Shown here: positions 6,431-38,136 of the stretch, piece by piece | Numbering within the stretch: the stretch's first letter is position 1 | Layout: each line of letters starts with the position of its first letter | IMG/VR virus record: IMGVR_UViG_2802429241_000009 | Origin: a virus | Lineage: Duplodnaviria > Heunggongvirae > Uroviricota > Caudoviricetes | Reading direction: 5' to 3' (one strand) | Length of the DNA: 39,485 nt | Translations under genes and position numbers: made by a program | Notes under the pieces: model-generated | The model's database searches: none | What the model saw: only the letters and a program-made list of their open reading frames with translations | What the model was told of the DNA's origin: nothing

Positions 6431-7235
6431 GGTTGAAGTTATCACTCCTGATAAACCTGAAATTTTTCAGATAGCAGAAATTCTGGGTATTGATCCAGAT
6501 GCTGTTCTTGGAAAGCTGGTTCGTATATGGGCATGGGCTGACCAGCAAACAATAGACGGTAACGCTGGCAGCGTTACAAAAGGAGTACTTGATAGACTCG
6601 CTTTTATTACAGGATTTGCTGACGCCCTCATTAGCGTCGGATGGCTTGCTTATCATGACGGCAAACTAATCCTTCCAAACTTTGAGCGACATAATGGAGA
6701 ATCATCGAAAAAACGTGCACTTACGAATAGAAGAGTGGCAGAGCATCGAAAACGAGTAACGCAAAAAGTAACGCCAACAGCGTTACAAAAGGAGTTACCA
6801 GAGGAAGAGGAAGATATATATAAAACCCCACACATAGCGCACGTGCGCGATGGTGCTCCGACCAGTGAAGCGAACGGTATGCCGTTGCAGGTGGCTGAAC
6901 CTGAATTTCTGGATGGCCTGAGTGAACCCATCGGGAAATTTCCGATGACCGATGGCTGGCATCCGTCGCCGGATTTTCGACGGCGTGCTGCGCTGTGGGG
7001 AACGGCCCTGCCGGAACCGGAATTTACACCTGCTGAACTTGCTGCATTCCGGGATTACTGGATGGCTGAGGGCAAAGTGTTCACGCAGGTTCAGTGGGAA
7101 CAAAAATTCGCCAGGCACGTAAATCATATCAGGGGAAAATCAAAAAACGCCGGGAAAAGCGATGAGCTTGACTGGAATAACACTGACTGGATAGAAGGGG
7201 TGTGGGATGAAATCAACTCCAGAACTTCTCAATGA
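6411..7235 (+). CDS. Replication initiator / replisome organizer (lambda O-like position)
   Basis: 275 aa immediately upstream of the P-like gene; palindromic iteron-like repeats and an AT-rich tract lie inside the gene; start at ATG 6411 (GTG 6393 alternative). Confidence 0.65.
   Translation: MASSWIKVEVITPDKPEIFQIAEILGIDPDAVLGKLVRIWAWADQQTIDGNAGSVTKGVLDRLAFITGFADALISVGWLAYHDGKLILPNFERHNGESSKKRALTNRRVAEHRKRVTQKVTPTALQKELPEEEEDIYKTPHIAHVRDGAPTSEANGMPLQVAEPEFLDGLSEPIGKFPMTDGWHPSPDFRRRAALWGTALPEPEFTPAELAAFRDYWMAEGKVFTQVQWEQKFARHVNHIRGKSKNAGKSDELDWNNTDWIEGVWDEINSRTSQ
6559..6588. repeat. Iteron-like element 1 inside the replication initiator gene: GTAACGC-N5-GCGTTAC plus AAAAGGAGTAC
   Basis: Perfect 7-N5-7 palindrome; recurs about 209 bp downstream in a different reading frame. 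Confidence 0.55.
6768..6797. repeat. Iteron-like element 2: GTAACGC-N5-GCGTTAC plus AAAAGGAGTTAC, with an extra GTAACGC at 6756 and an AT-rich tract at 6811..6825
   Basis: Same palindrome and 3' extension as element 1 but in another codon frame, so conserved at DNA level. Confidence 0.55.
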
Positions 7236-11426: not shown

Positions 11427-12023
11427 ATGATGCCTGCTGAACCTAAAACCTATAAACGCAAATCAACGCAATTTAAGCCGCTCACAGCAATGCAGGAGGC
11501 TTATTGCCAGTCATACATCAAAACGCCTGAAAACCAGACTCAGGCAGCGATTAACGCAGGATTCTCCCCAAATACAGCGGCAGTTAAAGCCAGTGTCATG
11601 ATGCGCGATGAACGCATTCAAAAACGGATTGCCGAGTTGATGGAGGAGCGCAACAAACGAATGCGCGTCAGTGCTGATTACGTTCTCATGCGCCTGGTGG
11701 AGATCGACCAGATGGACGTGATCGATATCCTCAACGACGATGGGAGCCTTAAACCAATCCGTGAGTGGCCGAAAATCTGGCGCACTACGCTTAGTGGCTT
11801 TGATCTGTCATCGACCATCATGAACATGAACGAGGATTCGATAGAGACAATCCTCAAAAAAATTAAATGGCCTGACAAGGTGAAGAACCTCGAACTGATT
11901 GGTAAGCACGTCGACGTCAACGCATTCAAAGAACGCCTGGATGTTAATGTGAATGTGACAATTGCTGATCGCATAGCGGCAGCCAGGAAGCGACTCAAAG
12001 AACGTCAGGATGGTAATCAGTGA
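11427..12023 (+). CDS. Terminase small subunit
   Basis: Immediately upstream of and overlapping the large terminase gene; start at ATG-ATG after GGTGG (upstream TTG start would cross a terminator hairpin). Confidence 0.65.
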   Translation: MMPAEPKTYKRKSTQFKPLTAMQEAYCQSYIKTPENQTQAAINAGFSPNTAAVKASVMMRDERIQKRIAELMEERNKRMRVSADYVLMRLVEIDQMDVIDILNDDGSLKPIREWPKIWRTTLSGFDLSSTIMNMNEDSIETILKKIKWPDKVKNLELIGKHVDVNAFKERLDVNVNVTIADRIAAARKRLKERQDGNQ

Positions 12024-13495
12024 CAGATACAGCGTTATCTCCTGAAGAGCAGTTGATCGAGGATATTGCAGGGTTCACTCACGATCCGCTTGGCTATGCC
12101 CTCTATGCGTTCCCGTGGGGGGAAGAGGGGACTGAATTAGCACATGCCACCGGTCCACGTCAGTGGCAGGCTGATGCGTTCCGAGAGATACGTGATCACC
12201 TGCAGAATCCAGAGACGCGCTATCAGCCGCTTATGCTGGCACGCGCTTCGGGTCACGGTATTGGTAAATCCGCATTCATCTCAATGCTGATCAACTGGGG
12301 CATGTCCACTTGCGAGGATTGTAAGGTCGTGGTGACCGCCAACACCGACAACCAGCTACGAACGAAGACCTGGCCGGAAATTATCAAGTGGTCGAACCTT
12401 GCTATCACGAAAGACTGGTTTACCTGTACCGCTACCGCGATGTACAGCAATGACCCTGGGCACGACAAGCGGTGGCGAGCTGACGCAATCCCCTGGTCTG
12501 AGCACAACACTGAGGCATTCGCCGGACTACACAACGAGCGCAAACGCATCATCGTGGTATTCGACGAAGCATCCAACATTGCCGATCTGGTGTGGGAGGT
12601 AGCAGAGGGTGCGCTGACGGACGAAGACACTGAGATTATCTGGGTGGCATTCGGAAACCCTACACGTAACACCGGGCGTTTCCGCGAATGTTTCCGCAAA
12701 TATAAACACCGCTGGAAAACTGCGCAGATTGACAGCCGGACGGTGGAAGGCACTAACAAACAGCAGTTGCAGAAATGGGTTGATGACTACGGGGAAGACA
12801 GCGACTTCGTTAAAATCCGTGTGCGCGGCATATTCCCGGATGCATCTGAATTGCAGTTTATCCCTACCGGCCTTACTGACGAGGCAATGAAACGGGTGGT
12901 AACCGCTGCGCAGGTTGCACATGCTCCGGTGATAATCGGCGTTGACCCGGCATACTCCGGCGTTGATGACGCTGTGATATACCTGCGGCAGGGGCTGCAC
13001 AGTAAGGTGCTGTGGACTGGCAACAAGACCACTGACGATCTGATTATGGCGAAGCGTATCGCTGACTTTGAAGACCAGTACCAGGCTGACGCGGTATTCA
13101 TCGACTTCGGTTACGGTACCGGTCTGAAGTCAATCGGTGACGGCTGGGGGCGTACATGGCAACTTGTTCCGTTCGGCGGTGCGTCCACTGACCCGCAGAT
13201 GCTTAACAAGCGTGGGGAGATGTTCAACTCATGTAAGACATGGCTGAGGCTGGGCGGCATGCTGGATGACCAGGAAACAGCGGACGACCTGTCGGCGGCA
13301 GAGTACAAAGTTCGCGTGGACGGTAAAATCGTTATCGAACCGAAGGAAGATATCAAGGAGCGGCTTGGGCGTTCTCCTGGTAAAGGCGATGCGCTATTGC
13401 TGACGTTTGCTTTCCCGGTGTCGAAGCGCCTGCGACTTCCCGGGCAGCAGAACCAGCAAGGCAAGGCCATTACAGATTACGATCCCTATGCTTAA
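12020..13495 (+). CDS. Terminase large subunit
   Basis: 491 aa; Walker A-like ARASGHGIGKS; position upstream of portal. Confidence 0.9.
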   Translation: MTDTALSPEEQLIEDIAGFTHDPLGYALYAFPWGEEGTELAHATGPRQWQADAFREIRDHLQNPETRYQPLMLARASGHGIGKSAFISMLINWGMSTCEDCKVVVTANTDNQLRTKTWPEIIKWSNLAITKDWFTCTATAMYSNDPGHDKRWRADAIPWSEHNTEAFAGLHNERKRIIVVFDEASNIADLVWEVAEGALTDEDTEIIWVAFGNPTRNTGRFRECFRKYKHRWKTAQIDSRTVEGTNKQQLQKWVDDYGEDSDFVKIRVRGIFPDASELQFIPTGLTDEAMKRVVTAAQVAHAPVIIGVDPAYSGVDDAVIYLRQGLHSKVLWTGNKTTDDLIMAKRIADFEDQYQADAVFIDFGYGTGLKSIGDGWGRTWQLVPFGGASTDPQMLNKRGEMFNSCKTWLRLGGMLDDQETADDLSAAEYKVRVDGKIVIEPKEDIKERLGRSPGKGDALLLTFAFPVSKRLRLPGQQNQQGKAITDYDPYA

Positions 13496-13623
13496 TCCGC
13501 TGGAGGGGATAATGACGAAGATATCCTCTGGCGAGGATAAAGCAAATCCAGTCTATGAGCTGGCTGTTTGTGACATGTCACGACATCAAAATGCATCGAA
13601 TTCGTATTTCATGATTCACAGCT

Positions 13624-13811: not shown

Positions 13812-13888
13812 TGGCGTGGCATGCAGGATTCGAACCTGCGACCAACCGCTTAGAAGGCGGTTGCTCTGTCCGACTGAGCTAATGCCAC
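13812..13888 (-). tRNA. tRNA-Arg (anticodon UCU), phage-borne
   Basis: 77 nt with full cloverleaf: 7-bp acceptor GTGGCAT/ATGCCAC, D-stem GCTC/GAGC, anticodon stem ACCGC/GCGGT with loop CTTCTAA, T-arm GCAGG-TTCGAAT-CCTGC, encoded CCA; close to E. coli argU as recalled. Confidence 0.85.
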
Positions 13889-19417: not shown

Positions 19418-20022
19418 TGGCCTCTGTAGTAGAGATCTGCAATCGTGCGCTGTCCAATATTGGCAATAGCCGCAGCATTAACAGCCTGACGGAAGCCAGC
19501 AAGGAAGCTGGGGAATGTTCGCTGCACTTTGAGGCCTGCCGTGATGCTGTTCTTTCTGATTTTGACTGGAACTTTGCTACCAAACGCGTGGCGCTTGCAG
19601 ATACGAGCAATCCACCGCCTGACTGGGAATATGCGTACCAGTACCCGTCCGATTGTCTGCGCATTACTGAAATTATGCTTCTTGGTGTACGCAATCCAAC
19701 AGCAGCAATGCGCGTTCAGTACGAAGTTGGTGCAGACACCAACGGAACAGGAAAGTTGATCTACACAGACCAGCCGCAGGCATGGCTCAAGTATGTATCT
19801 CGCGTTTCAGATGTGAACATGTTTGATGCCATTTTTATGGAGGCGTTGGCCTGGCGTCTTGCGGCAGCTATTAACATGGCGCTGACTGGGAATGCAGACC
19901 TCGGTACGTTTGCCCTCAATATGTACAATCGCGTGATTCTTAGTGCTGGCTCGCATAGCCAGAATGAATCACAGGAACCACAGCCACCGGTTGACGAGTT
20001 TACCATTGCGAGGTTGTCCTGA
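19417..20022 (+). CDS. Tail tubular protein A-like (adaptor), T7 gp11-like position
   Basis: 201 aa; N-terminal pattern loosely resembles T7 gp11 as recalled; gene order. Confidence 0.5.
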   Translation: MASVVEICNRALSNIGNSRSINSLTEASKEAGECSLHFEACRDAVLSDFDWNFATKRVALADTSNPPPDWEYAYQYPSDCLRITEIMLLGVRNPTAAMRVQYEVGADTNGTGKLIYTDQPQAWLKYVSRVSDVNMFDAIFMEALAWRLAAAINMALTGNADLGTFALNMYNRVILSAGSHSQNESQEPQPPVDEFTIARLS

Positions 20023-27819: not shown

Positions 27820-30294
27820 ATGAGACAGGAATGTATACAAGCGGTCCAGCAGGCGGCGCAGCGCACGTTAACGGCGCGAGAAATACAGAACATTGAAGAC
27901 CGCATTTATCGCAATATGCGCTCCATTGCTCGTGATGACCCTATGTCGTGGCGACAACTTTCCGAGTCAGAGCGGCTGTATCGTGCAGCACAATTGGCAT
28001 CTGAAGAATTACAGCGAGAAGCGGCATTAAAGAAACGTCGTGTGGCTCTCACTATAGCCGCACGTCAGAGATTGGATAAATTTATCAATAGCTATCAAGG
28101 GGCTGATGGGAAACTTGGCGCTCTTAACCGTACTATTGCTTTTAATGCAGACGGTAAATCGAATTTCCTCTCTGTTGAGTCCAGAACAAAAGCCACTCGT
28201 GATTATGCATTGAGTCAATTGCAGGAGGCATTCGAAGCAGTTGATCCTCGCTTTTTTGGCCTGTTTGAAGATGAAGCGGGCGTGCGTGACCTGGTATATG
28301 AAATGCGAGGGCAAAATACTGGCAATGCTAAAGCAAGAAAAGGTGCTAAGGCGTGGAGAGAAGTGACAGATCTACTCCGCCGCCGGTTTAATGATGCTGG
28401 TGGGGACATTGGCTATCTCGAAAACTGGGGGATCCCTCAACATCATTCTATGGAAAAGGTTGGGGCGGTATCAAAGGATAAGTGGGTTAGCGATGTTATA
28501 GGTAAGCTGGATCGCAAATATTATATCCGAGCCGATGGACAACTGATGAATGATGCCGAGTTGTCTGCATTTCTTGGAGAGGCTTATAACACGATCGCTA
28601 CTGGTGGGCTGAATAAGCTTACTGATACCGGAATGCGAATTTCCGGCGCACGTGCTAACCGTGGTAATGCATCACGACAGATACATTTCAAAGATGCAGA
28701 TTCCTATCTCCAATATCAACAACTTTATGGCGATCGCTCTCTATGGGAAATCATGGTCGGTCACCTGGAAGGGATCAGTAAAGATATTGCTCTGGTGGAA
28801 ACATATGGCCCAAACCCCGATCATGTTTTCCGTTCCCTTCTTGATCAGGTGAAGGCTGAAACGGCAACAGCTAACCCGAGTAAAACCGGTAGCGTTGAGC
28901 GGCTGGCGAACAAAACAGAGAACCTGTACAACTTTATTTCCGGAAAGACACAGCCTGTAGCTAATCCGCACATCGCGCGATGGTCTGACAATATCCGCAA
29001 CTGGCTGGTTGCCAGCAGACTCGGATCCGCGTTGCTGTCATCGTTCTCTGATCTTGGAACCATGTATCTGTCTGCGAAGGTTACCAACCTTCCAATGAAC
29101 CAGTTATTCCGCAACCAGCTTGAAGCTATGGACCCAACGAACCGTACTGAGCTTGCGCGGGCGCGCCGAGCTGGTCTGGCGATGGAATCTCTACTTGGCA
29201 GCGTTAACCGCTGGGCGATGGATAATATGGGGCCGTCTGTGTCTCGTTGGGCGGCAACGGCGGTAATGCGTGCCAGTGGGCTTACAGCATGGTCAGATGC
29301 GCACAAGCGCGCCTATGGCGTAACTATGATGGGAAGCCTGGGAGAAGTAGTGTCACGGACACCAGACCTTCGTAGCCTCGATGACTCTGATTTTCGTATC
29401 CTGAAAAGCAAAGGGATTACTGACACAGACTGGAGCGTATGGAAGCTGGCGCAACAGGAGGACTGGGGGAACGGTAATAATACGATGCTGACACCGGAAA
29501 GCATTATGCGTATCCCTGATTCAGCAGTTAAACATCTTGGTGAGCCTGAACGTGTGAAATTTGAGGCAATGCGTAAACTGCTCGGTGCCGTAACTGAAGA
29601 AGTTGATATGGCTGTTATTACACCGGGCGCACGTGAACAGATGTTCGTAGGGTCTGGTCTTCAGCGTGGAACATGGAAAGGTGAATTAACGAGAAGTGTT
29701 TTCCTGTTTAAATCGTTCCCTATCTCGGTAGTTATGCGTCACTGGCATAGAGCTATGGGGATGCCGTCTGCTGGTGGGCGTGCGGCATATATAGCAACGT
29801 TTTTAGCAAGCACAACCATGCTTGGTGCTCTTTCCATGCAGATTACTGATCTTATTAATGGGAGAAATCCAAAAGAAATGACCGGTGACAACATGGTTAA
29901 ATTCTGGATAAATGCATTTTTAAAAGGTGGTGGGGCAGGGTTGTATGGTGATTTTCTTTTCTCTGACCACACCAGGTACGGGAGCGGCGCACTAGCGTCG
30001 ATGCTTGGCCCGGTAGCTGGTCTGGTTGATGACGTAGTGAAGATTGCTCAGGGCATACCGTTAAATGCTGTGGAAGGGAAGAATGAGCAGACTGGTGGTG
30101 ATCTGGTTAAGCTTGGGAAAGGTTTGATGCCTGGTGCGAATCTCTGGTACTTGAAGGCGGCTCTCGATCACATGATCTTTAACCAGATGCAGGAGTATTT
30201 TTCACCAGGCTATTTGCGTAAAATGGAGCAACGTTCGAAGAAAGAGTTTAATCAGACATACTGGTGGCGACCTCAGGATGTCACTCCGCAATAA
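27820..30294 (+). CDS. Internal virion / ejection protein (T7 gp16-like position)
   Basis: 824 aa; GAGAGG SD. Confidence 0.55.
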   Translation: MRQECIQAVQQAAQRTLTAREIQNIEDRIYRNMRSIARDDPMSWRQLSESERLYRAAQLASEELQREAALKKRRVALTIAARQRLDKFINSYQGADGKLGALNRTIAFNADGKSNFLSVESRTKATRDYALSQLQEAFEAVDPRFFGLFEDEAGVRDLVYEMRGQNTGNAKARKGAKAWREVTDLLRRRFNDAGGDIGYLENWGIPQHHSMEKVGAVSKDKWVSDVIGKLDRKYYIRADGQLMNDAELSAFLGEAYNTIATGGLNKLTDTGMRISGARANRGNASRQIHFKDADSYLQYQQLYGDRSLWEIMVGHLEGISKDIALVETYGPNPDHVFRSLLDQVKAETATANPSKTGSVERLANKTENLYNFISGKTQPVANPHIARWSDNIRNWLVASRLGSALLSSFSDLGTMYLSAKVTNLPMNQLFRNQLEAMDPTNRTELARARRAGLAMESLLGSVNRWAMDNMGPSVSRWAATAVMRASGLTAWSDAHKRAYGVTMMGSLGEVVSRTPDLRSLDDSDFRILKSKGITDTDWSVWKLAQQEDWGNGNNTMLTPESIMRIPDSAVKHLGEPERVKFEAMRKLLGAVTEEVDMAVITPGAREQMFVGSGLQRGTWKGELTRSVFLFKSFPISVVMRHWHRAMGMPSAGGRAAYIATFLASTTMLGALSMQITDLINGRNPKEMTGDNMVKFWINAFLKGGGAGLYGDFLFSDHTRYGSGALASMLGPVAGLVDDVVKIAQGIPLNAVEGKNEQTGGDLVKLGKGLMPGANLWYLKAALDHMIFNQMQEYFSPGYLRKMEQRSKKEFNQTYWWRPQDVTPQ

Positions 30295-30303
30295 GGAAGT
30301 GTT

Positions 30304-30477
30304 GTGTTTTTAATTATTTTGAGTGTGATAATTTCTGGTGGGTTGTTATTTATTGACCGCTACAAATATTTTCTTAACCCTCAGACTCAAGCTATTTGCT
30401 GGTTCATCTTTGTTGTGCAGGGAATAGTTCTTGTTGCAAGCCTTATTGAGGGGAGGCCTCTGATTTTTACTGGGTAA
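30304..30477 (+). CDS. Small hydrophobic membrane protein (57 aa, two predicted TM segments)
   Basis: Not in the ORF track; GTG start after AAGGAAG; VFLIILSVIISGGLLFI and ICWFIFVVQGIVLVASLI hydrophobic stretches. Confidence 0.3.
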   Translation: MFLIILSVIISGGLLFIDRYKYFLNPQTQAICWFIFVVQGIVLVASLIEGRPLIFTG

Positions 30478-30489
30478 ATAGGTGACTAC

Positions 30490-30786
30490 ATGCAAGCGAT
30501 AGGATTCATTGTTTATATCGTCGTTGGCCTTTTTCAGTTGGCAGCAATTATGGCTGGGCTTGAATCAAGGTGGGGATTGCACTGGATAATTGCAGCCCCC
30601 ATTGCTTTCATCGTGAGCTATATTCCATTTGTTGGAGCGATTGTTGGTATGGTTGGTGCTGTGGATGTATGGCGGTGGGAGTGGTGGCAGGCTGGCCTTC
30701 TCTTCTTTGGTGGGATCATCTTTGCTATTGTCTGCGGTGGAATGTCATCATTTTTCGAACGGCTATCATTCAGAAAAGGAACGTGA
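30490..30786 (+). CDS. Small integral membrane protein (98 aa, about 3 TM segments)
   Basis: Strongly hydrophobic ORF; GGTGA SD; followed by a hairpin plus T-run terminator. Confidence 0.5.
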   Translation: MQAIGFIVYIVVGLFQLAAIMAGLESRWGLHWIIAAPIAFIVSYIPFVGAIVGMVGAVDVWRWEWWQAGLLFFGGIIFAIVCGGMSSFFERLSFRKGT

Positions 30787-30794
30787 CATGTCAC

Positions 30795-30819
30795 AGGCCG
30801 CTTTCGCGGCCTTGTTTTT
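30795..30819 (+). terminator. Intrinsic terminator after the 98-aa membrane protein gene
   Basis: AGGCCGC-TTTC-GCGGCCT followed by TGTTTTTA; lies between convergent genes. Confidence 0.65.
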
Positions 30820-30979
30820 AACGAATGCCACCGCCACCCGGGCGGGAATCCGCAGAACGCCCACCGCAGCGGGAGCCGTCAGCGGCAGTATCGCTGTCGT
30901 GCTGACAACGACCGGCAAAAGCCTGAGTTGAAGCTACCAGAGACAACAAAACGAACAGTGCAGCAAATGCTTTTTTCAT
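30818..30979 (-). CDS. Signal-peptide microprotein (53 aa; mature peptide about 31 aa with 2 Cys)
   Basis: MKKAFAALFVLLSLVASTQAFA looks like a Sec signal peptide with an AFA cleavage site; convergent with the upstream + gene; competing + ORF 30788..30931 crosses the terminator. Confidence 0.35.
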   Translation of the reverse strand: MKKAFAALFVLLSLVASTQAFAGRCQHDSDTAADGSRCGGRSADSRPGGGGIR

Positions 30980-31051
30980 TGTGAAATTTCCATCCATAAG
31001 CCACCTCAATGTGGCGTCAATGAGTGTAGCACTGACTTTTGTTTCGTCCAC

Positions 31052-31074
31052 AAAAAAAGCCCGCAGCGCTGGCT
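31052..31074 (-). terminator. Intrinsic terminator at the 3' end of the 179-aa membrane protein gene
   Basis: Minus-strand imperfect hairpin overlapping the stop codon followed by TTTTTTTG. Confidence 0.5.
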
Positions 31075-31613
31075 TACCAAAACTTGTACCACGGGGATTT
31101 ATCCTTCAATGGGCAATCCTTCCATCGTGTGGCCAACCATTCATATTCTTTAAAATATGTGTTTATGTTTTCTTTTTCTCTAATGGCTTGTATAAGAGGT
31201 AGCGCAATCTGATAGTTATTTACAACGGAGCTGTAAAATACTTCCTTAATCATGGTCTCATCATAAGTTTTCCGCTTCACGCTCACAGCCATGCGTTCGT
31301 AGAAACCTAGACAGTAAATTATTTCTCTCTTCTCTGTCTTTTCTTCATCCGTAAGATCAGCCTGCCCATTGCTTGGATACATATAAGAGCGGAATGATTT
31401 GTTCGATTCGTGAATGCGGCGCATAGTAGATAGGCCTTTCTTATAATCTACATCAAACCTGCTTTCACCAAGGAATACTGAAGTGTGTACTTTTCTCGCT
31501 GTATTTACATTATAAATAATAGTAGCGATAGCTATGAACAAGCCAAGCGAAACCGCGACTGCACTTACGATTTGAGCCACAGCCATGGCAAATTGCATTT
31601 CTTCACTTAACAC
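31074..31613 (-). CDS. Membrane-anchored hypothetical protein (179 aa), AT-rich gene; candidate superinfection-exclusion or defence protein
   Basis: GTG start after GGAGA; N-terminal TM (AMAVAQIVSAVAVSLGLFIAIATIIY); visibly lower GC than neighbours; hairpin/U-run structures at both ends. Confidence 0.55.
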   Translation of the reverse strand: MLSEEMQFAMAVAQIVSAVAVSLGLFIAIATIIYNVNTARKVHTSVFLGESRFDVDYKKGLSTMRRIHESNKSFRSYMYPSNGQADLTDEEKTEKREIIYCLGFYERMAVSVKRKTYDETMIKEVFYSSVVNNYQIALPLIQAIREKENINTYFKEYEWLATRWKDCPLKDKSPWYKFW

Positions 31614-31630
31614 AAACTGTCTCCAGACAT

Positions 31631-31653
31631 GAAAACGGGGCCTAATGGCCCCG
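31631..31653 (-). terminator. Hairpin plus short U-run between the antirepressor gene and the 179-aa gene (terminator or attenuator)
   Basis: Minus-strand CGGGGCC-ATTA-GGCCCCG followed by TTTTC, ending about 20 nt before the GTG start of the 179-aa gene. Confidence 0.45.
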
Positions 31654-31822
31654 TCATTAAACTATCCGAATGTTAAACGCCTTCGTACTCGTCAAATTTT
31701 CTCATGTGGGCTCCTCCTGTATCGGTGCATAATCGCTATGGATCACCCGTGAGGTAATAGTAAGCTATTCACCTGCAATCTGTACAGAATTATTTAAAGG
31801 CACATCCCTGTGCCGCCGCTCG

Positions 31823-32509
31823 TCAGAAGAACCCTGCCTTGTCGTTGATGTACTCCGCGTGCGTCTGGATATCACGCAGGCATTTGCTCACACCGACGAT
31901 GTAGCAGAACATGGTGGTCAACTCCGCCGCCGCGCCCGATACGTCGTGCCCGTCTTCCTGTAACTGGTTCAGCAGATTCATCAGCAGTGAGTTCTCCGTC
32001 AGGCCGAGAACACCAGACGGCGAGTGAATCAGGCTGCGGTAGCCTGGCTTCAGCGGGGCGCTGTAGGTTTTGTTCTCTATCTTCATCGCCTGCATCACTG
32101 CTGACGCCGTGGCGTTGGCTACCTGGTCGGCAACCATCTTTATGCGTTCTTCCTGCGGGAGCGAGTTTTTAATGTAACTTCCGGTGCGGCGGATCTGAGG
32201 AAGAACCTCACCTGTAACCCATTTACGAAAGCGGTAGGGGATAGTGCCTGGTGTCACCGCATCGCGGCAGCGGAGGATCAGTGTGTAGAGGCCTGACTCG
32301 CTGATAATATTGGTTTCGCCTTGACGACCTAAGTTAAATTTAGCCCTTTCATCATCATCAAGAGATTTGATTGACATGGTGGGGTTTGTCAGTTGAAGAG
32401 CTTTAATAACGTCTTTGGCAACAAACCAAGGATTTCCATCAATAACAATGGCTCGAATGGTTGCTTCTGATTCAAAATGAAAAACAGATGGGGTTACGTT
32501 AGCAGTCAT
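31823..32509 (-). CDS. BRO-N domain antirepressor-like protein
   Basis: N-terminal SVFHFESEATIRAIVIDGNPWFVAKDVIKALQL resembles the BRO-N signature; AGGTG SD before the ATG; long structured leader upstream. Confidence 0.7.
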   Translation of the reverse strand: MTANVTPSVFHFESEATIRAIVIDGNPWFVAKDVIKALQLTNPTMSIKSLDDDERAKFNLGRQGETNIISESGLYTLILRCRDAVTPGTIPYRFRKWVTGEVLPQIRRTGSYIKNSLPQEERIKMVADQVANATASAVMQAMKIENKTYSAPLKPGYRSLIHSPSGVLGLTENSLLMNLLNQLQEDGHDVSGAAAELTTMFCYIVGVSKCLRDIQTHAEYINDKAGFF

Positions 32510-32667
32510 GGCAATCACCTTTTAGTATGGTTAATCACCACCTGAGGTGCAAATCTCGTTGGTGGTGAGACGTACAGGGTTTGCACTACCGGCTAAAAGG
32601 ACCCGGCGCACCTTTCGGTGCCCCTGCACGTCCCACCATAATTCTGGCATGACTGTGCTATACGCAT

Positions 32668-32690
32668 AAAAAAACCACGTCTGGCGTGGT
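32668..32690 (-). terminator. Intrinsic terminator inside the antirepressor upstream region (attenuator or 3' end of a short RNA)
   Basis: Minus-strand ACCACG-CCAGA-CGTGGT followed by TTTTTTTAT. Confidence 0.6.
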
Positions 32691-32750
32691 ATGCGCCTTT
32701 TAGTAATCCGGGGTGCAAATCCCGGCACTGGATTTTGCCAGTGCTCGATT

Positions 32751-32779
32751 ACTATGGCACAAGAGGAGTGCGATGTAAA
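32751..32779 (-). promoter_or_regulatory. Candidate leftward promoter of a short structured RNA / antirepressor leader
   Basis: Minus-strand -35 TTTACA (plus 32774..32779), 17-bp spacer, -10 CATAGT (plus 32751..32756); predicted start near 32744. Confidence 0.3.
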
Positions 32780-32780
32780 T

Positions 32781-32795
32781 TTACCGCAAAGGTAA
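32781..32795. promoter_or_regulatory. Operator-like palindrome TTACC-N5-GGTAA adjacent to a candidate leftward promoter of the antirepressor leader
   Basis: Exact; abuts the candidate -35 (TTTACA on the minus strand). Confidence 0.5.
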
Positions 32796-32873
32796 TGATA
32801 AACGCTGATAAATATAAAAATCAACCGTATTTGGTTGATTGCGTTTAACGCTTGATCACCTGAAAGCAAGATA

Positions 32874-32888
32874 TTACCTTTAAGGTAA
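32874..32888. promoter_or_regulatory. Operator-like palindrome TTACC-N5-GGTAA just upstream of the zinc-ribbon protein gene
   Basis: Exact; overlaps the alternative ATG at 32888. Confidence 0.5.
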
Positions 32889-32908
32889 TGTTATTGTGGG
32901 GAAAAGCA

Positions 32909-33637
32909 ATGGAAGTTTTCTGGATAGTTGTTGGTGTGGTTGCGGTGATTATTTACGTTATCAACCAGAACAAGACTAAGATCTCTGATCGTACGGTCGT
33001 TAATCATAACAAAACGATAAAGACCGAAGATGGGGAGATAACGATTAATCGTACACAGGTGATAGAACACACCTCTACTCAGTTTCAAAAAACTGGAGGT
33101 AATGCGCCTAATATTTCCGCACCTCCTGCTTATGATAGTGCGGTAATCCAGACATATTATAAACAGCAGGAGTTAGCAAAAGAGAGGCAACTGATTCAGC
33201 CAAAGCCGTTTACAGCTGAGCTTCCACCTGGAGTGTCAACGCGTCCGGCATATCATGGAAGATTCCCTGGTGATGACATATCGTCTCAGTCATCTAAAAA
33301 AGCACCTCAGGCAGTATCAGAGCCAGCAAGAATACCTTCTGTATCGCCGCCAAAAGAAGAATCAGCTAACAGAGTTTCAAGTGGTAGCAAGCAGTGCTTG
33401 CGATGCAGAATAAACCTTCCATATGAAAAATTCAGGAAATCGTCAAAAAATCCAGATGGATTGACTAAGTGGTGTGCAAGGTGTCTCGATGGCCCAAAGA
33501 ATACACGCCATATGAAGTGGTGCCCAATTTGTAATGTCCGCAGAAAACGAACCAGTTTTTACCCTAATAATCAAAATGCGGATGGCTTAATGGCATGGTG
33601 CAAAACGTGCTGGGACGAGCACAAAGCGAAACGATAG
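32909..33637 (+). CDS. Membrane-anchored protein with a tandem C-terminal zinc-ribbon-like repeat
   Basis: N-terminal TM (VFWIVVGVVAVIIYVI); Ser/Pro-rich linker; two repeats of C-x2-C-x(17-20)-DGL-x3-WC-x2-C; ATG at 32888 is an alternative start. Confidence 0.55.
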   Translation: MEVFWIVVGVVAVIIYVINQNKTKISDRTVVNHNKTIKTEDGEITINRTQVIEHTSTQFQKTGGNAPNISAPPAYDSAVIQTYYKQQELAKERQLIQPKPFTAELPPGVSTRPAYHGRFPGDDISSQSSKKAPQAVSEPARIPSVSPPKEESANRVSSGSKQCLRCRINLPYEKFRKSSKNPDGLTKWCARCLDGPKNTRHMKWCPICNVRRKRTSFYPNNQNADGLMAWCKTCWDEHKAKR

Positions 33638-36244: not shown

Positions 36245-36338
36245 CTTCTTATCGAAAATAGAGGTTATTTTTATTCATATATGGTTTATGTATCATAAAG
36301 CCACCAGTTAATTGGTTACACACTTAAAAGGTGGTTTT

Positions 36339-36743
36339 ATGATAGCTCATCCAACAAGTGAGTCTTTAAATCAATGGCTTAGCATGGGGTCTCTTGCTGC
36401 TGTTATTGCTGGGGTTCCTCCGGAGGTGGCTCTTGGTGCTTTATCTGGCGCGGTGATTTTTGTTACCTCAGCTGTAGAGTATCCGATCCGCCGTCGGGTG
36501 CTACTGTCGATGCTCAGCTTTCTTTGCGGCCTTCTCTTCTACAAACCAGCAGCATCAATTCTTATCGGCATAGCCAGCCTGATCCCTACCATCACGCAGG
36601 ACTCTTTTGAAAAAGGGATTGTTTTCTCTGCTGGCGCATTCGTGTCAGCAATTGTCGCCGTGCGTATTGGTATATGGCTCTATCACCGTTCCGATAATCC
36701 ACGCGAGTTAATTCCGGGGAGAAAAGACGATGGTAACGCATGA
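36339..36743 (+). CDS. Holin/antiholin-like multi-pass membrane protein
   Basis: Hydrophobic ORF at the start of the lysis cassette; ATG after AAAGGTGG (track ORF starts at TTG 36312). Confidence 0.5.
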   Translation: MIAHPTSESLNQWLSMGSLAAVIAGVPPEVALGALSGAVIFVTSAVEYPIRRRVLLSMLSFLCGLLFYKPAASILIGIASLIPTITQDSFEKGIVFSAGAFVSAIVAVRIGIWLYHRSDNPRELIPGRKDDGNA

Positions 36744-37038
36744 TTTTTTTTTGCTTATCACCAATGCAGTTATTTGCACTGGCATAGCAATTCGCGTTGT
36801 CACATTCCGGCGTAACGGCTCTCAACACCGAAGGTGGGGAGGATGGCTTGCTTATTTCCTGATTGTTGCTGCGGCCAGTATTCCTGTTCGTGTCGCCTAT
36901 GCAATCTGGTTACGTACGCCAATGGCTGTGGATTTATCTGAGGTCATTATCAACGCTGTCATGCTAGCTGCGGTTATTAAAACGCGCGGTAACGTCGTTC
37001 AAATTTTCAAAGTATCGAGGTCTAAATATGGAGATTAA
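36730..37038 (+). CDS. Holin-like membrane protein (about 3 TM segments)
   Basis: 102 aa hydrophobic protein immediately upstream of the endolysin. Confidence 0.55.
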
Positions 37039-37657
37039 ACAATTCCAGCGAGCTGCTGGTATTAGCGAGGCGTTGGCCTCACGCTGGTTCTCGCATATAA
37101 CTTCTGCGATGAAAGAGTTTGGTATCAGCAAACCCGAAGATCAGGCAATGTTTATTGCTCAGGTCGGGCATGAGTCTGGGGGCTTCACCCGGTTGCAGGA
37201 AAATTTCAACTACAGCGTCACCGGACTGGCTAACTTCGTTCGGGCTGGGCGTCTCACTCAGGGACAGGCCAACGCATTGGGGCGCCGTGCTGGTGAACCA
37301 CCATTGCCACTTGATCGCCAGAGAGCGATCGCCAATCTGGTGTACAGCAAACGCATGGGGAACAATGCCTCTGGTGATGGCTGGAATTACCGTGGCCGCG
37401 GACTTATCCAGATTACCGGTTTGAATAACTATCGTGATTGCGGAAACGGCCTGAAAGTGGACCTGCTGGAGAATCCTGAACTGTTGGCGCAGGACGAATA
37501 TGCGGCTCGTAGCGCGGCGTGGTTCTTCGCCAGCAAAGGATGCATGAAGTATACCGGCGATATTGCACGTGTAACTCTGATTATCAATGGTGGCCGGAAC
37601 GGCATCGACGACCGGCGCGCGCGGTACATCACTGCCAGTAAGGTGCTGGCGGTATGA
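37028..37657 (+). CDS. Endolysin, glycoside hydrolase family 19-like
   Basis: [15 protein letters not shown] resembles the GH19 signature; GHESGGF segment; position between holin and Rz. Confidence 0.8.
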
Positions 37658-38136
37658 TCTGGGCATTCGCAAAAGCATACTGGAAACAGTTGGTTATCAT
37701 GGCGATGCTTGCTGTTCTGGTCATATCAGGAGTTGTTGCCTGGAATGTACACGGTAGCCGTCAGTACGACGCCGGGTATGCACAGGCGAAGGAAGACCGC
37801 AAAGCTGAAGATGAGAGAGTTCGTCAGCACTACGAACAGGAGAAAGCGACCAATGAACGTGAAGCTCAGCAGAGGATCGACCAGGCGCGCAATGATGCTC
37901 TTGATGCTGCCGCTCGCGCTGGCCGGTTGCAGCAACAACTCTTTGCCATCCGTGAGCAGCTCAGGCAGTATAACGCCATTGTCGGCGCTGGGACGTCAGC
38001 CGCAGACACCGGAGTTTTGCTTGCCGACGTGCTCAGCAAATCTCTCGAGAGAAACAGACAACTGGCAGAGTATGCTGACCGGGCATCCGAAGCCGGAAGA
38101 GTCTGCGAAAAACAGTACGACACTCTGACCAGATAG
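37654..38136 (+). CDS. Rz-like inner-membrane spanin
   Basis: N-terminal TM then coiled-coil, Arg/Gln-rich periplasmic domain; ATGA overlap with the endolysin stop; contains an embedded +1-frame lipoprotein ORF. Confidence 0.7.
37853..38128 (+). CDS. Rz1-like outer-membrane lipoprotein spanin (embedded in Rz, different frame)
   Basis: ATG after AGGAGA; lipobox LPLALAGC; Pro/Ser-rich mature part; entirely within the Rz gene. Confidence 0.55.
   Translation: MNVKLSRGSTRRAMMLLMLPLALAGCSNNSLPSVSSSGSITPLSALGRQPQTPEFCLPTCSANLSRETDNWQSMLTGHPKPEESAKNSTTL

Follow-up and report, generated by a model that had tools for sequence, protein, structure and literature searches.

A self-contained cassette of about 290 bp, with the order terminator, putative promoter, gene and terminator, adjoins the 3' end of the late virion operon in a temperate Escherichia coli prophage and moves as a block between otherwise unrelated phage backgrounds. 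The DNA analyzed is the 39,485-nucleotide virus record IMGVR_UViG_2802429241_000009 (Caudoviricetes) of IMG/VR, which at its full length is called the window here. By sequence comparison the window is an epsilon15/phiV10-like (Uetakevirus) temperate E. coli prophage, and its region 30304-30979 is 98-99% identical to the Uetakevirus E. coli phages HEMP4 and phiv142-3. This region holds three small open reading frames (ORFs). ORF-A (30304..30477, + strand) encodes 57 aa with two transmembrane (TM) segments, ORF-B (30490..30786, + strand) encodes 98 aa with three TM helices and a basic C-terminal tail, and ORF-C (30818..30979, - strand) encodes a 53-aa pre-peptide. An earlier note on this DNA had described these ORFs and placed the first two directly after the last ejection-protein gene and before a terminator on the + strand. 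All three ORFs and the associated features are present where it put them. The gene upstream (27820..30294, + strand) is the last large virion gene and encodes an 824-aa gp17-like virion/ejection-type protein; it matches phrog_684 ("virion structural protein") with E=0 and is a homolog of epsilon15 gp17 and phiV10p20. The terminator that closes ORF-A and ORF-B is the top-ranked one of the late region and is annotated in phiV10 as well. The locus is the junction at which the 3' end of the late virion operon passes into an accessory region preceding the tail-fibre gene. This structural and genetic description is secure, and the three ORFs are ordinary, already catalogued prophage accessory genes. 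Two points are of some interest: the extreme modular mobility of the ORF-C cassette, and an unmodelled mini-domain within ORF-C that spans phyla. The explanation we prefer for the locus as a whole is the end of a late operon joined to a moron, with lysogenic-conversion and cargo roles in the cell envelope; we hold it tentatively and consider it a little short of evenly likely.

The features of the ORF-C cassette, including its 162-bp gene, match the definition of a moron (Juhala/Hendrix; PMC3594210). In an alignment of phages with unrelated flanks, DNA is near-invariant over the upstream terminator (31052-31075), a 72-nt leader, ORF-C itself, a GC-rich hairpin and a palindrome at 30783-30794, and similarity ends abruptly on both sides of this block, at terminators. 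The GC content of ORF-C is 0.57, compared with 0.49 for the window. The upstream edge of the cassette is the terminator of a DUF4760 protein gene (31052..31075, - strand), which appears in the alignment as a sharp boundary of conservation. The DUF4760 gene (31074..31613, - strand; Pfam PF15956, E=8e-31) is a variable neighbor that is elsewhere replaced by YafO or DUF2335 genes; the cassette was found beside one of these three in 537 of 5426 complete E. coli genomes. A relative of ORF-C is encoded on 307 IMG/VR viral contigs. Among the best 80 of these contigs, all with the identical ORF-C protein, together with the window, the cassette is flanked by 10 types of upstream and 8 types of downstream sequence in 45 combinations. 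ORF-C is absent from phiV10, where only the last ~20 nt of the gene remain at the same junction.

ORF-C would be transcribed in the lysogen from its own sigma-70 promoter. The putative site (31023..31050, - strand) consists of a -35 element TGGACG at 31045-31050, a 16-nt spacer and a -10 element TACACT at 31023-31028 that is preceded by TGc. In 16 homologous leaders the fixed -10 position reads TAnnnT almost without exception, and TGGACG lies 16 nt upstream of it. The literature yielded no transcriptome from a lysogen with this cassette; the "Gally" study of LF82 concerns a P22-like phage and contains no data on these genes. Just downstream of the -10 element, 18-28 nt upstream of the start codon, the leader contains a stem-loop (31000..31015, - strand; GCCAC-N6-GTGGC). 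A hairpin is present at this place in 13 of the 16 leaders, compared with 2.0 expected from shuffled sequences, and its stem differs among genera (GCCAC/GTGGC, GCCGC/GCGGC, TTGCC/GGCAA and ACCACC/GGTGGT). It may be a 5'-terminal hairpin that stabilises the mRNA or is regulatory. The stem of the DUF4760 terminator is a perfect 7 bp (AGCCCGC..GCGGGCT followed by a T run) in TL-2011b, phiv142-3, EC.W1-9 and E. coli 99_0288, and has a C-to-A change in the window and its closest relative (AAGCCAGC…GCGGGCTT). The stem is imperfect here, and read-through into ORF-C may be higher in the window.

At the other edge of the cassette, the intrinsic terminator that ends the late operon (30795..30819, + strand) has a stem at 30795-30812, in which 6 of 7 pairs are G-C, followed by TGTTTTT. 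It ranks first among the terminators of the 16.6-kb late region. Read on the opposite strand, the hairpin 30795-30819 is predicted to be the terminator of the ORF-C transcript as well, and a GC-rich hairpin lies 3' of the ORF-C stop codon in 12 of 13 divergent homologs. A second hairpin, at 30440-30461 near the 3' end of ORF-A, looked terminator-like in the scan and was rejected, as it is not conserved in homologs. The cassette boundary is marked by the perfect 12-bp palindrome GTGACATGTCAC (30783..30794), which overlaps the ORF-B stop codon. The window contains two exact copies of it, one following the terminase gene (13570-13581) and one at the end of the late operon, adjoining the terminator (30783-30794). 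The same two junctions carry the palindrome in phiV10 (2262-2273 and 19493-19504), and prophages with diverged ORF-C DNA in Kluyvera, Klebsiella, Buttiauxella and Cronobacter also have it beside the ORF-C terminator. The palindrome may function as an operator, mark a recombination boundary or belong to the minus-strand terminator.

ORF-C is clearly a protein-coding gene on the minus strand. The comparison of 16 sequences from 12 genera gave, for the core of the mature part, a proportion of synonymous differences (pS) of 0.70, which is near saturation, and of nonsynonymous differences (pN) of 0.105, for a pN/pS of about 0.15. All 25 third codon positions of this core vary, compared with 10 first and 8 second positions. 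The rival + strand ORF 30788-30931 has a pN/pS of 1.9 and up to 6 stops in homologs. The earlier note had preferred the minus-strand frame to this ORF, and both the substitution pattern and the stops agree with its choice. It had also proposed conservation of the reading frames in related prophages as a check on all three genes; we found purifying selection only in the called frames and ORF lengths that are conserved across genera. ORF-C homologs form 57 clusters at 90% identity, and the exact protein occurs on at least 1000 contigs. It matches phrog_14503 over its full length (residues 1-53 of 53, E=2.3e-40), and a search of 29800-32000 against Rfam returned no RNA family that would account for the GC-rich ORF-C region.

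The translated sequence, MKKAFAALFVLLSLVASTQAFA|GRCQHDSDTAADGSRCGGRSADSRPGGGGIR with the bar between signal peptide and mature part, has the composition that the earlier note had read from it, namely a signal peptide followed by a 31-aa peptide rich in Gly, Arg and Asp with two cysteines. The signal peptide (30914-30979) consists of an MKK n-region, the h-region AFAALFVLLSLVA of about 13-14 residues and a STQAFA|G cleavage region with Ala at -3 and -1. The predicted mature part (30821-30913) contains 8 Gly, 5 Arg, 4 Asp and 2 Cys. Across genera an [A/S/V]-x-A|G site is kept, other positions of the signal peptide drift (pN 0.24, compared with 0.105 for the mature core), and the core CQHDxDTAADGSRCGGRSADSRPGG is almost invariant. 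No lipobox L-[AS]-[GA]-C is present in ORF-C, where the residue preceding the first Cys is R, N, S or H (…AFAGRC / …FAGNC), and by this criterion ORF-C would not be an exclusion lipoprotein of the Cor/Llp type. Sec would export the pre-peptide, signal peptidase I would cut it after AFA, and oxidation would close a C-x12-C disulfide loop. The mature product is most likely a free, soluble periplasmic peptide of 31 residues with one disulfide, rather than the "transmembrane anchored" protein of database annotations.

The conserved core of ORF-C is also found far outside phages. As a module of 26 residues with the consensus GxC-x12-CGxR[AS]AxxRPGG, it was located at 57 genomic loci, including ones in Mesorhizobium, Rhizobium, Agrobacterium, Bradyrhizobium, Methylobacterium, cyanobacteria, Vibrio, Bacteriovorax and a myxobacterium (Myxococcota), and its profile matches 353 cluster representatives at 50% identity. 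The module can make up a secreted peptide by itself or lie at either terminus of a longer protein; it is also found beside TM helices and in two or three copies, including tandem repeats, and it always follows a signal peptide or adjoins a TM segment. Other architectures that we noticed are a signal peptide-module-TM-cytoplasmic domain arrangement, a four-Cys "CPCPY" variant and a fusion to NucA/NucB. Among 89 longer relatives, 6-9 are fused to SH3_3, SH3_4 or PG_binding_1, a range that gives members per family with the overlap between families unseparated. No model for the module was found in Pfam or NCBIfam, including scans of typical distant members, and the ORF-C profile had no match up to E=10 among PDB sequences. 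A signalling peptide of the arbitrium kind was considered for ORF-C and rejected, because the module is also found inside multi-domain and non-phage proteins.

This distribution is what makes a role unrelated to exclusion worth weighing. ORF-C could be an envelope factor of benefit to the host, its disulfide loop binding a general ligand such as peptidoglycan, a metal ion or a phosphate-bearing lipid, and phages would then have taken on, as lysogenic-conversion cargo, one copy of a mini-domain that is widespread in bacteria. The spread of the module across Alphaproteobacteria, cyanobacteria, Vibrio, Bacteriovorax and Myxococcota speaks for this, as do some chromosomal contexts that lack phage genes, the fusions to cell-wall-binding domains, and the invariant Asp, Ser and Arg residues, which would fit a binding loop. 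Such fusions are few, however; no ligand can be deduced for the module, its fold is not confident, and in Enterobacterales every copy examined lies in a prophage accessory region. We regard a purely host-benefit role as somewhat unlikely. In the explanation that we prefer, too, the module would serve as a small loop that binds a ligand in the cell envelope.

ORF-A and ORF-B, which precede the cassette, are genuine, selectively maintained genes for small proteins predicted to reside in the inner membrane, and they occupy a recombinationally variable slot between the gp17-type gene and the palindrome and terminator. ORF-A has a GTG start with the Shine-Dalgarno sequence AAGGAAG 5 nt upstream, two hydrophobic segments by hydropathy and a GC content of 0.37. 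Its homologs (13 clusters at 90% identity, 56-58 aa) conserve a GTG/TTG start with a Shine-Dalgarno sequence, and pN/pS values of 0.13-0.46 indicate moderate purifying selection. The exact protein is found on 577 contigs. The earlier note had presented ORF-A as a 57-aa, 2-TM gene missed by the six-frame track; homologs and substitution pattern show that the gene is real, but it is not new, as the identical protein is already recorded as CBJ02129.1, "integral membrane protein", of enterotoxigenic E. coli (ETEC) H10407. H10407 is a natural lysogen with all three genes (NC_017633, 2851176-2851860). RefSeq usually leaves ORF-A unannotated. ORF-B, for which about three TM segments had been proposed, indeed has three TM helices in its AlphaFold2 model (2-28, 32-42/46-59 and 65-97; predicted local distance difference test, pLDDT, 89), the second being kinked at a conserved proline. 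It starts with ATG after the Shine-Dalgarno sequence AGGTG and ends in a basic tail. Its homologs (48 clusters at 90% identity, down to 44% identity) are under very strong constraint, with pN/pS of 0.04-0.07, and it matches phrog_3075, a family without known function, over its full length (residues 1-98 of 98, E=3.7e-53). A homology test shows no relationship between ORF-A and ORF-B. About one in 25 complete E. coli genomes carries the pair.

The occupants of the slot differ among phages and include the 46-aa, 2-TM protein phiV10p21, ORF-A with a different 92-aa membrane protein in Kluyvera, lipoproteins of 137 and 138 aa and secreted proteins of 186 and 283 aa; the slot is a hot spot for envelope-targeted cargo of these three kinds. 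In 79 IMG/VR flanks we counted ORF-A and ORF-B together in 23, a Bro-N/Ant gene in 16, the 137-aa lipoprotein in 11, the 283-aa secreted protein in 8, a 152-aa protein in 7, the 186-aa secreted protein in 6, a small TM protein with the 138-aa lipoprotein in 5 and phiV10p21 in 3. Seven alternative cargo proteins, the Bro-N/Ant gene not among them, were scanned; six belong to PHROGs of unknown function, the Kluyvera 92-aa protein has no PHROG, and no Pfam domain was found in any. In phiV10 the 46-aa protein (phiV10p21, phrog_7892) follows gp20 and precedes the same terminator and palindrome. It is 24% identical to ORF-A in a forced alignment, which makes it an alternative cargo and not a homolog. 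The C-terminus of gp17 in the window shares 98.5% identity with its counterpart in a phage that has phiV10p21 and about 90% with those of ORF-A/B carriers; this closer match shows that the cargo is exchanged independently of gp17. An ORF-B homolog also follows a distant gp17-like gene in a Salmonella prophage, and another lies near an integrase in a metagenomic prophage. Since a promoter scan detected no promoter-like site preceding ORF-A and ORF-B, the simplest reading is that they are the last genes of the late transcript.

Late transcription and the shape of ORF-B raise the possibility of a lysis-timing function. ORF-B, possibly with ORF-A, could be a holin- or antiholin-like protein rather than an exclusion factor. 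Like class I holins such as lambda S, it has three TM helices, a predicted N-out/C-in topology, a basic C-terminal tail and transcription together with the late genes, and in the same slot the Kluyvera prophage carries a 92-aa 2-TM protein with a highly charged tail. ORF-B also has a sub-threshold match to Phage_holin_5_2 (E=0.01), but its 16.5 bits compare with a Pfam cut-off of 29.2 bits, and it falls below every Pfam holin threshold. A complete lysis cassette with Phage_holin_8, Phage_holin_3_7, a GH19 endolysin and a DUF2514 spanin lies elsewhere, at 36312-38136, and ORF-B, unlike a typical class I holin, is outside of it and has no profile similarity to the two holin-family proteins there. 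Foldseek of the ORF-B model against the BFVD viral structures gave no match with E below 2, and viable relatives, phiV10 among them, have the slot empty or filled otherwise. A holin or antiholin is thus an unlikely identity for ORF-B, and a lysis-timing role for ORF-A and ORF-B is less likely than one at the inner membrane in DNA entry.

The earlier note had suggested that small membrane and secreted proteins at such a place are typical exclusion or immunity factors. Such a role is plausible for the three proteins by positional analogy. In the explanation that we prefer, ORF-C would be a lysogenic-conversion factor in the periplasm, the compartment crossed by incoming ejection proteins, and ORF-A and ORF-B would be exchangeable cargo, transcribed late, that affects DNA entry at the inner membrane; we have low confidence in both of these roles. 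The closest positional parallel is sieA of P22, which lies directly after the last ejection-protein gene (16), is convergent with it and has its own promoter. ORF-C occupies the same position, while ORF-A and ORF-B differ from sieA in being co-oriented with the late operon. SieA blocks the ejection-protein conduit (PMC10883804). The proteins themselves are different, SieA having 162-164 aa, 3 TM segments and a cytoplasmic FxRYPxEAxxFNK motif and ORF-C being a 53-aa secreted pre-peptide. The likeness we propose is one of kind, in that ORF-C, like SieA, may be accessory cargo expressed from the prophage and acting on the envelope step of DNA delivery. HK97 gp15, the first described moron, is an exclusion gene with homologs outside prophages (YebO) (PMC3594210). 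Like ORF-C, it is a small envelope protein whose gene lies in or next to the late operon on a free-standing insert with a terminator and a promoter, the latter putative in ORF-C, with deviating GC content and non-phage homologs. Unlike the predicted soluble periplasmic ORF-C, to which it has no sequence relationship, gp15 is an inner-membrane protein with a shown exclusion phenotype.

Phage T4 offers parallels in size and compartment. The small periplasmic protein Spackle, exported by Sec, gives protection against superinfection, and DNA entry is blocked by the small 2-TM membrane protein Imm; both are early genes of a virulent phage. Spackle resembles ORF-C, and Imm resembles ORF-A, in size and compartment only, and neither ORF matched a PHROG among exclusion-annotated families. 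The most specific version of the idea would make the mature part of ORF-C an undescribed, widespread extracytoplasmic mini-domain that was captured as a mobile moron and serves as a Spackle-like 31-residue exclusion factor, binding a conserved envelope target and blocking periplasmic DNA delivery. We find this version improbable.

Several observations weigh against the roles in lysogenic conversion and DNA entry outlined above. ORF-A and ORF-B are within the late transcription unit and have no detectable promoter of their own, unlike prophage-expressed immunity genes, and therefore they are possibly never made in lysogens. The promoter that we infer for ORF-C falls below the scan threshold of 9 of 12 consensus positions, the Shine-Dalgarno sequence of this gene is weak, and in its AlphaFold2 model only the helix of the signal peptide is confident, the mature peptide having no confident fold (pLDDT about 50-60). 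Comparison of all three proteins with P22 SieA by hhalign gave probabilities of 0.1-0.3%. None of the three, nor their neighbors, matched the defence models of PADLOC-DB 2.0 with E up to 1; no PHROG with an exclusion annotation was matched, and neither Pfam nor NCBIfam gave anything above threshold for ORF-A, ORF-B or ORF-C. Literature searches on the three proteins found nothing, and the paper on the Uetakevirus ZX5 is silent on them. The ORF-A homolog has decayed in a Cronobacter prophage (6509-6676), with an in-frame stop and compensating +1/-1 indels beside an intact ORF-B; because of this, ORF-A is dispensable and separable from ORF-B. Conversely, ORF-A is found without ORF-B in a Kluyvera prophage and ORF-B without ORF-A in a Salmonella prophage. 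Finally, chromosomes of Alphaproteobacteria and cyanobacteria commonly carry the module, in many cases with no obvious phage genes around it, which argues for a general envelope function over one specific to phages. An exclusion mechanism is thus a minority probability, and a general envelope-binding role is equally well supported by the wide occurrence of the module outside phages.

Two further alternatives concern the nature of the gene products. ORF-C could remain uncleaved, as an inner-membrane protein anchored by its N-terminal helix that presents the 31-aa module at the periplasmic face. In agreement with this, the identical protein is named "transmembrane anchored protein" in NCBI and UniProt (TL-2011b gp43, UniProt A0A0A1A7U0), and in longer relatives the module is tethered beside a TM helix. 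Against it, a hydrophobic core of merely about 13-14 residues is short, and small residues are retained at -3 and -1 (A/S/V-x-A before G) as the remainder of the signal peptide drifts, a pattern characteristic of signal peptidase I sites. We consider a retained anchor quite improbable; because the short hydrophobic core goes with a conserved cleavage site and no lipobox, the database label is probably a misnomer for a cleaved periplasmic peptide. It is very improbable that the small ORFs are not functional genes at all, the region consisting of mere terminators between convergent operons or of a real gene at + strand ORF 30788-30931: the ORFs are short, ORF-A is often unannotated and the Shine-Dalgarno sequence of ORF-C is weak, but purifying selection precisely in the called frames, ORF lengths conserved across genera and the pN/pS and stops of the + frame all contradict this.

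Other elements of the window were noted in passing. Beyond the DUF4760 gene lies a Bro-N antirepressor gene (31823..32518, - strand), and directly upstream of it Rfam identified a C4 antisense RNA (32558-32643, - strand, 77.8 bits) and isrK (32668-32744, - strand, 67.4 bits). Because these two RNAs precede the antirepressor gene, the arrangement indicates an antirepressor control module of the P1/P7 immI type, and a 112-aa ORF that overlaps them (32531-32869) is probably spurious. Between this antirepressor module and the tail fibre is an accessory gene for a 249-aa protein (32888-33637, + strand; phrog_6762), whose C-terminal zinc-finger-like stretches match PHROGs of endonuclease VII, HNH and Lar-like restriction-alleviation proteins as well as Pfam Stc1. 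The large terminase gene (12020-13495) and the portal-region genes are separated by ~1 kb that lacks long ORFs, and a tRNA-Arg(TCT) gene (13812-13888, - strand) is located in this gap; in phiV10 other small cargo genes are found there.

Podovirus prophages in general appear to collect cargo in the slot that follows the last ejection-protein gene, and this hot spot may be a useful hunting place for envelope-acting accessory genes. The core of ORF-C is among the shortest strongly conserved secreted modules seen here, and a ligand for it would annotate hundreds of protein clusters across several phyla. Since about one in ten complete E. coli genomes, including that of ETEC H10407, carries the ORF-C cassette, even a modest phenotype such as phage exclusion or envelope modification would be widespread.

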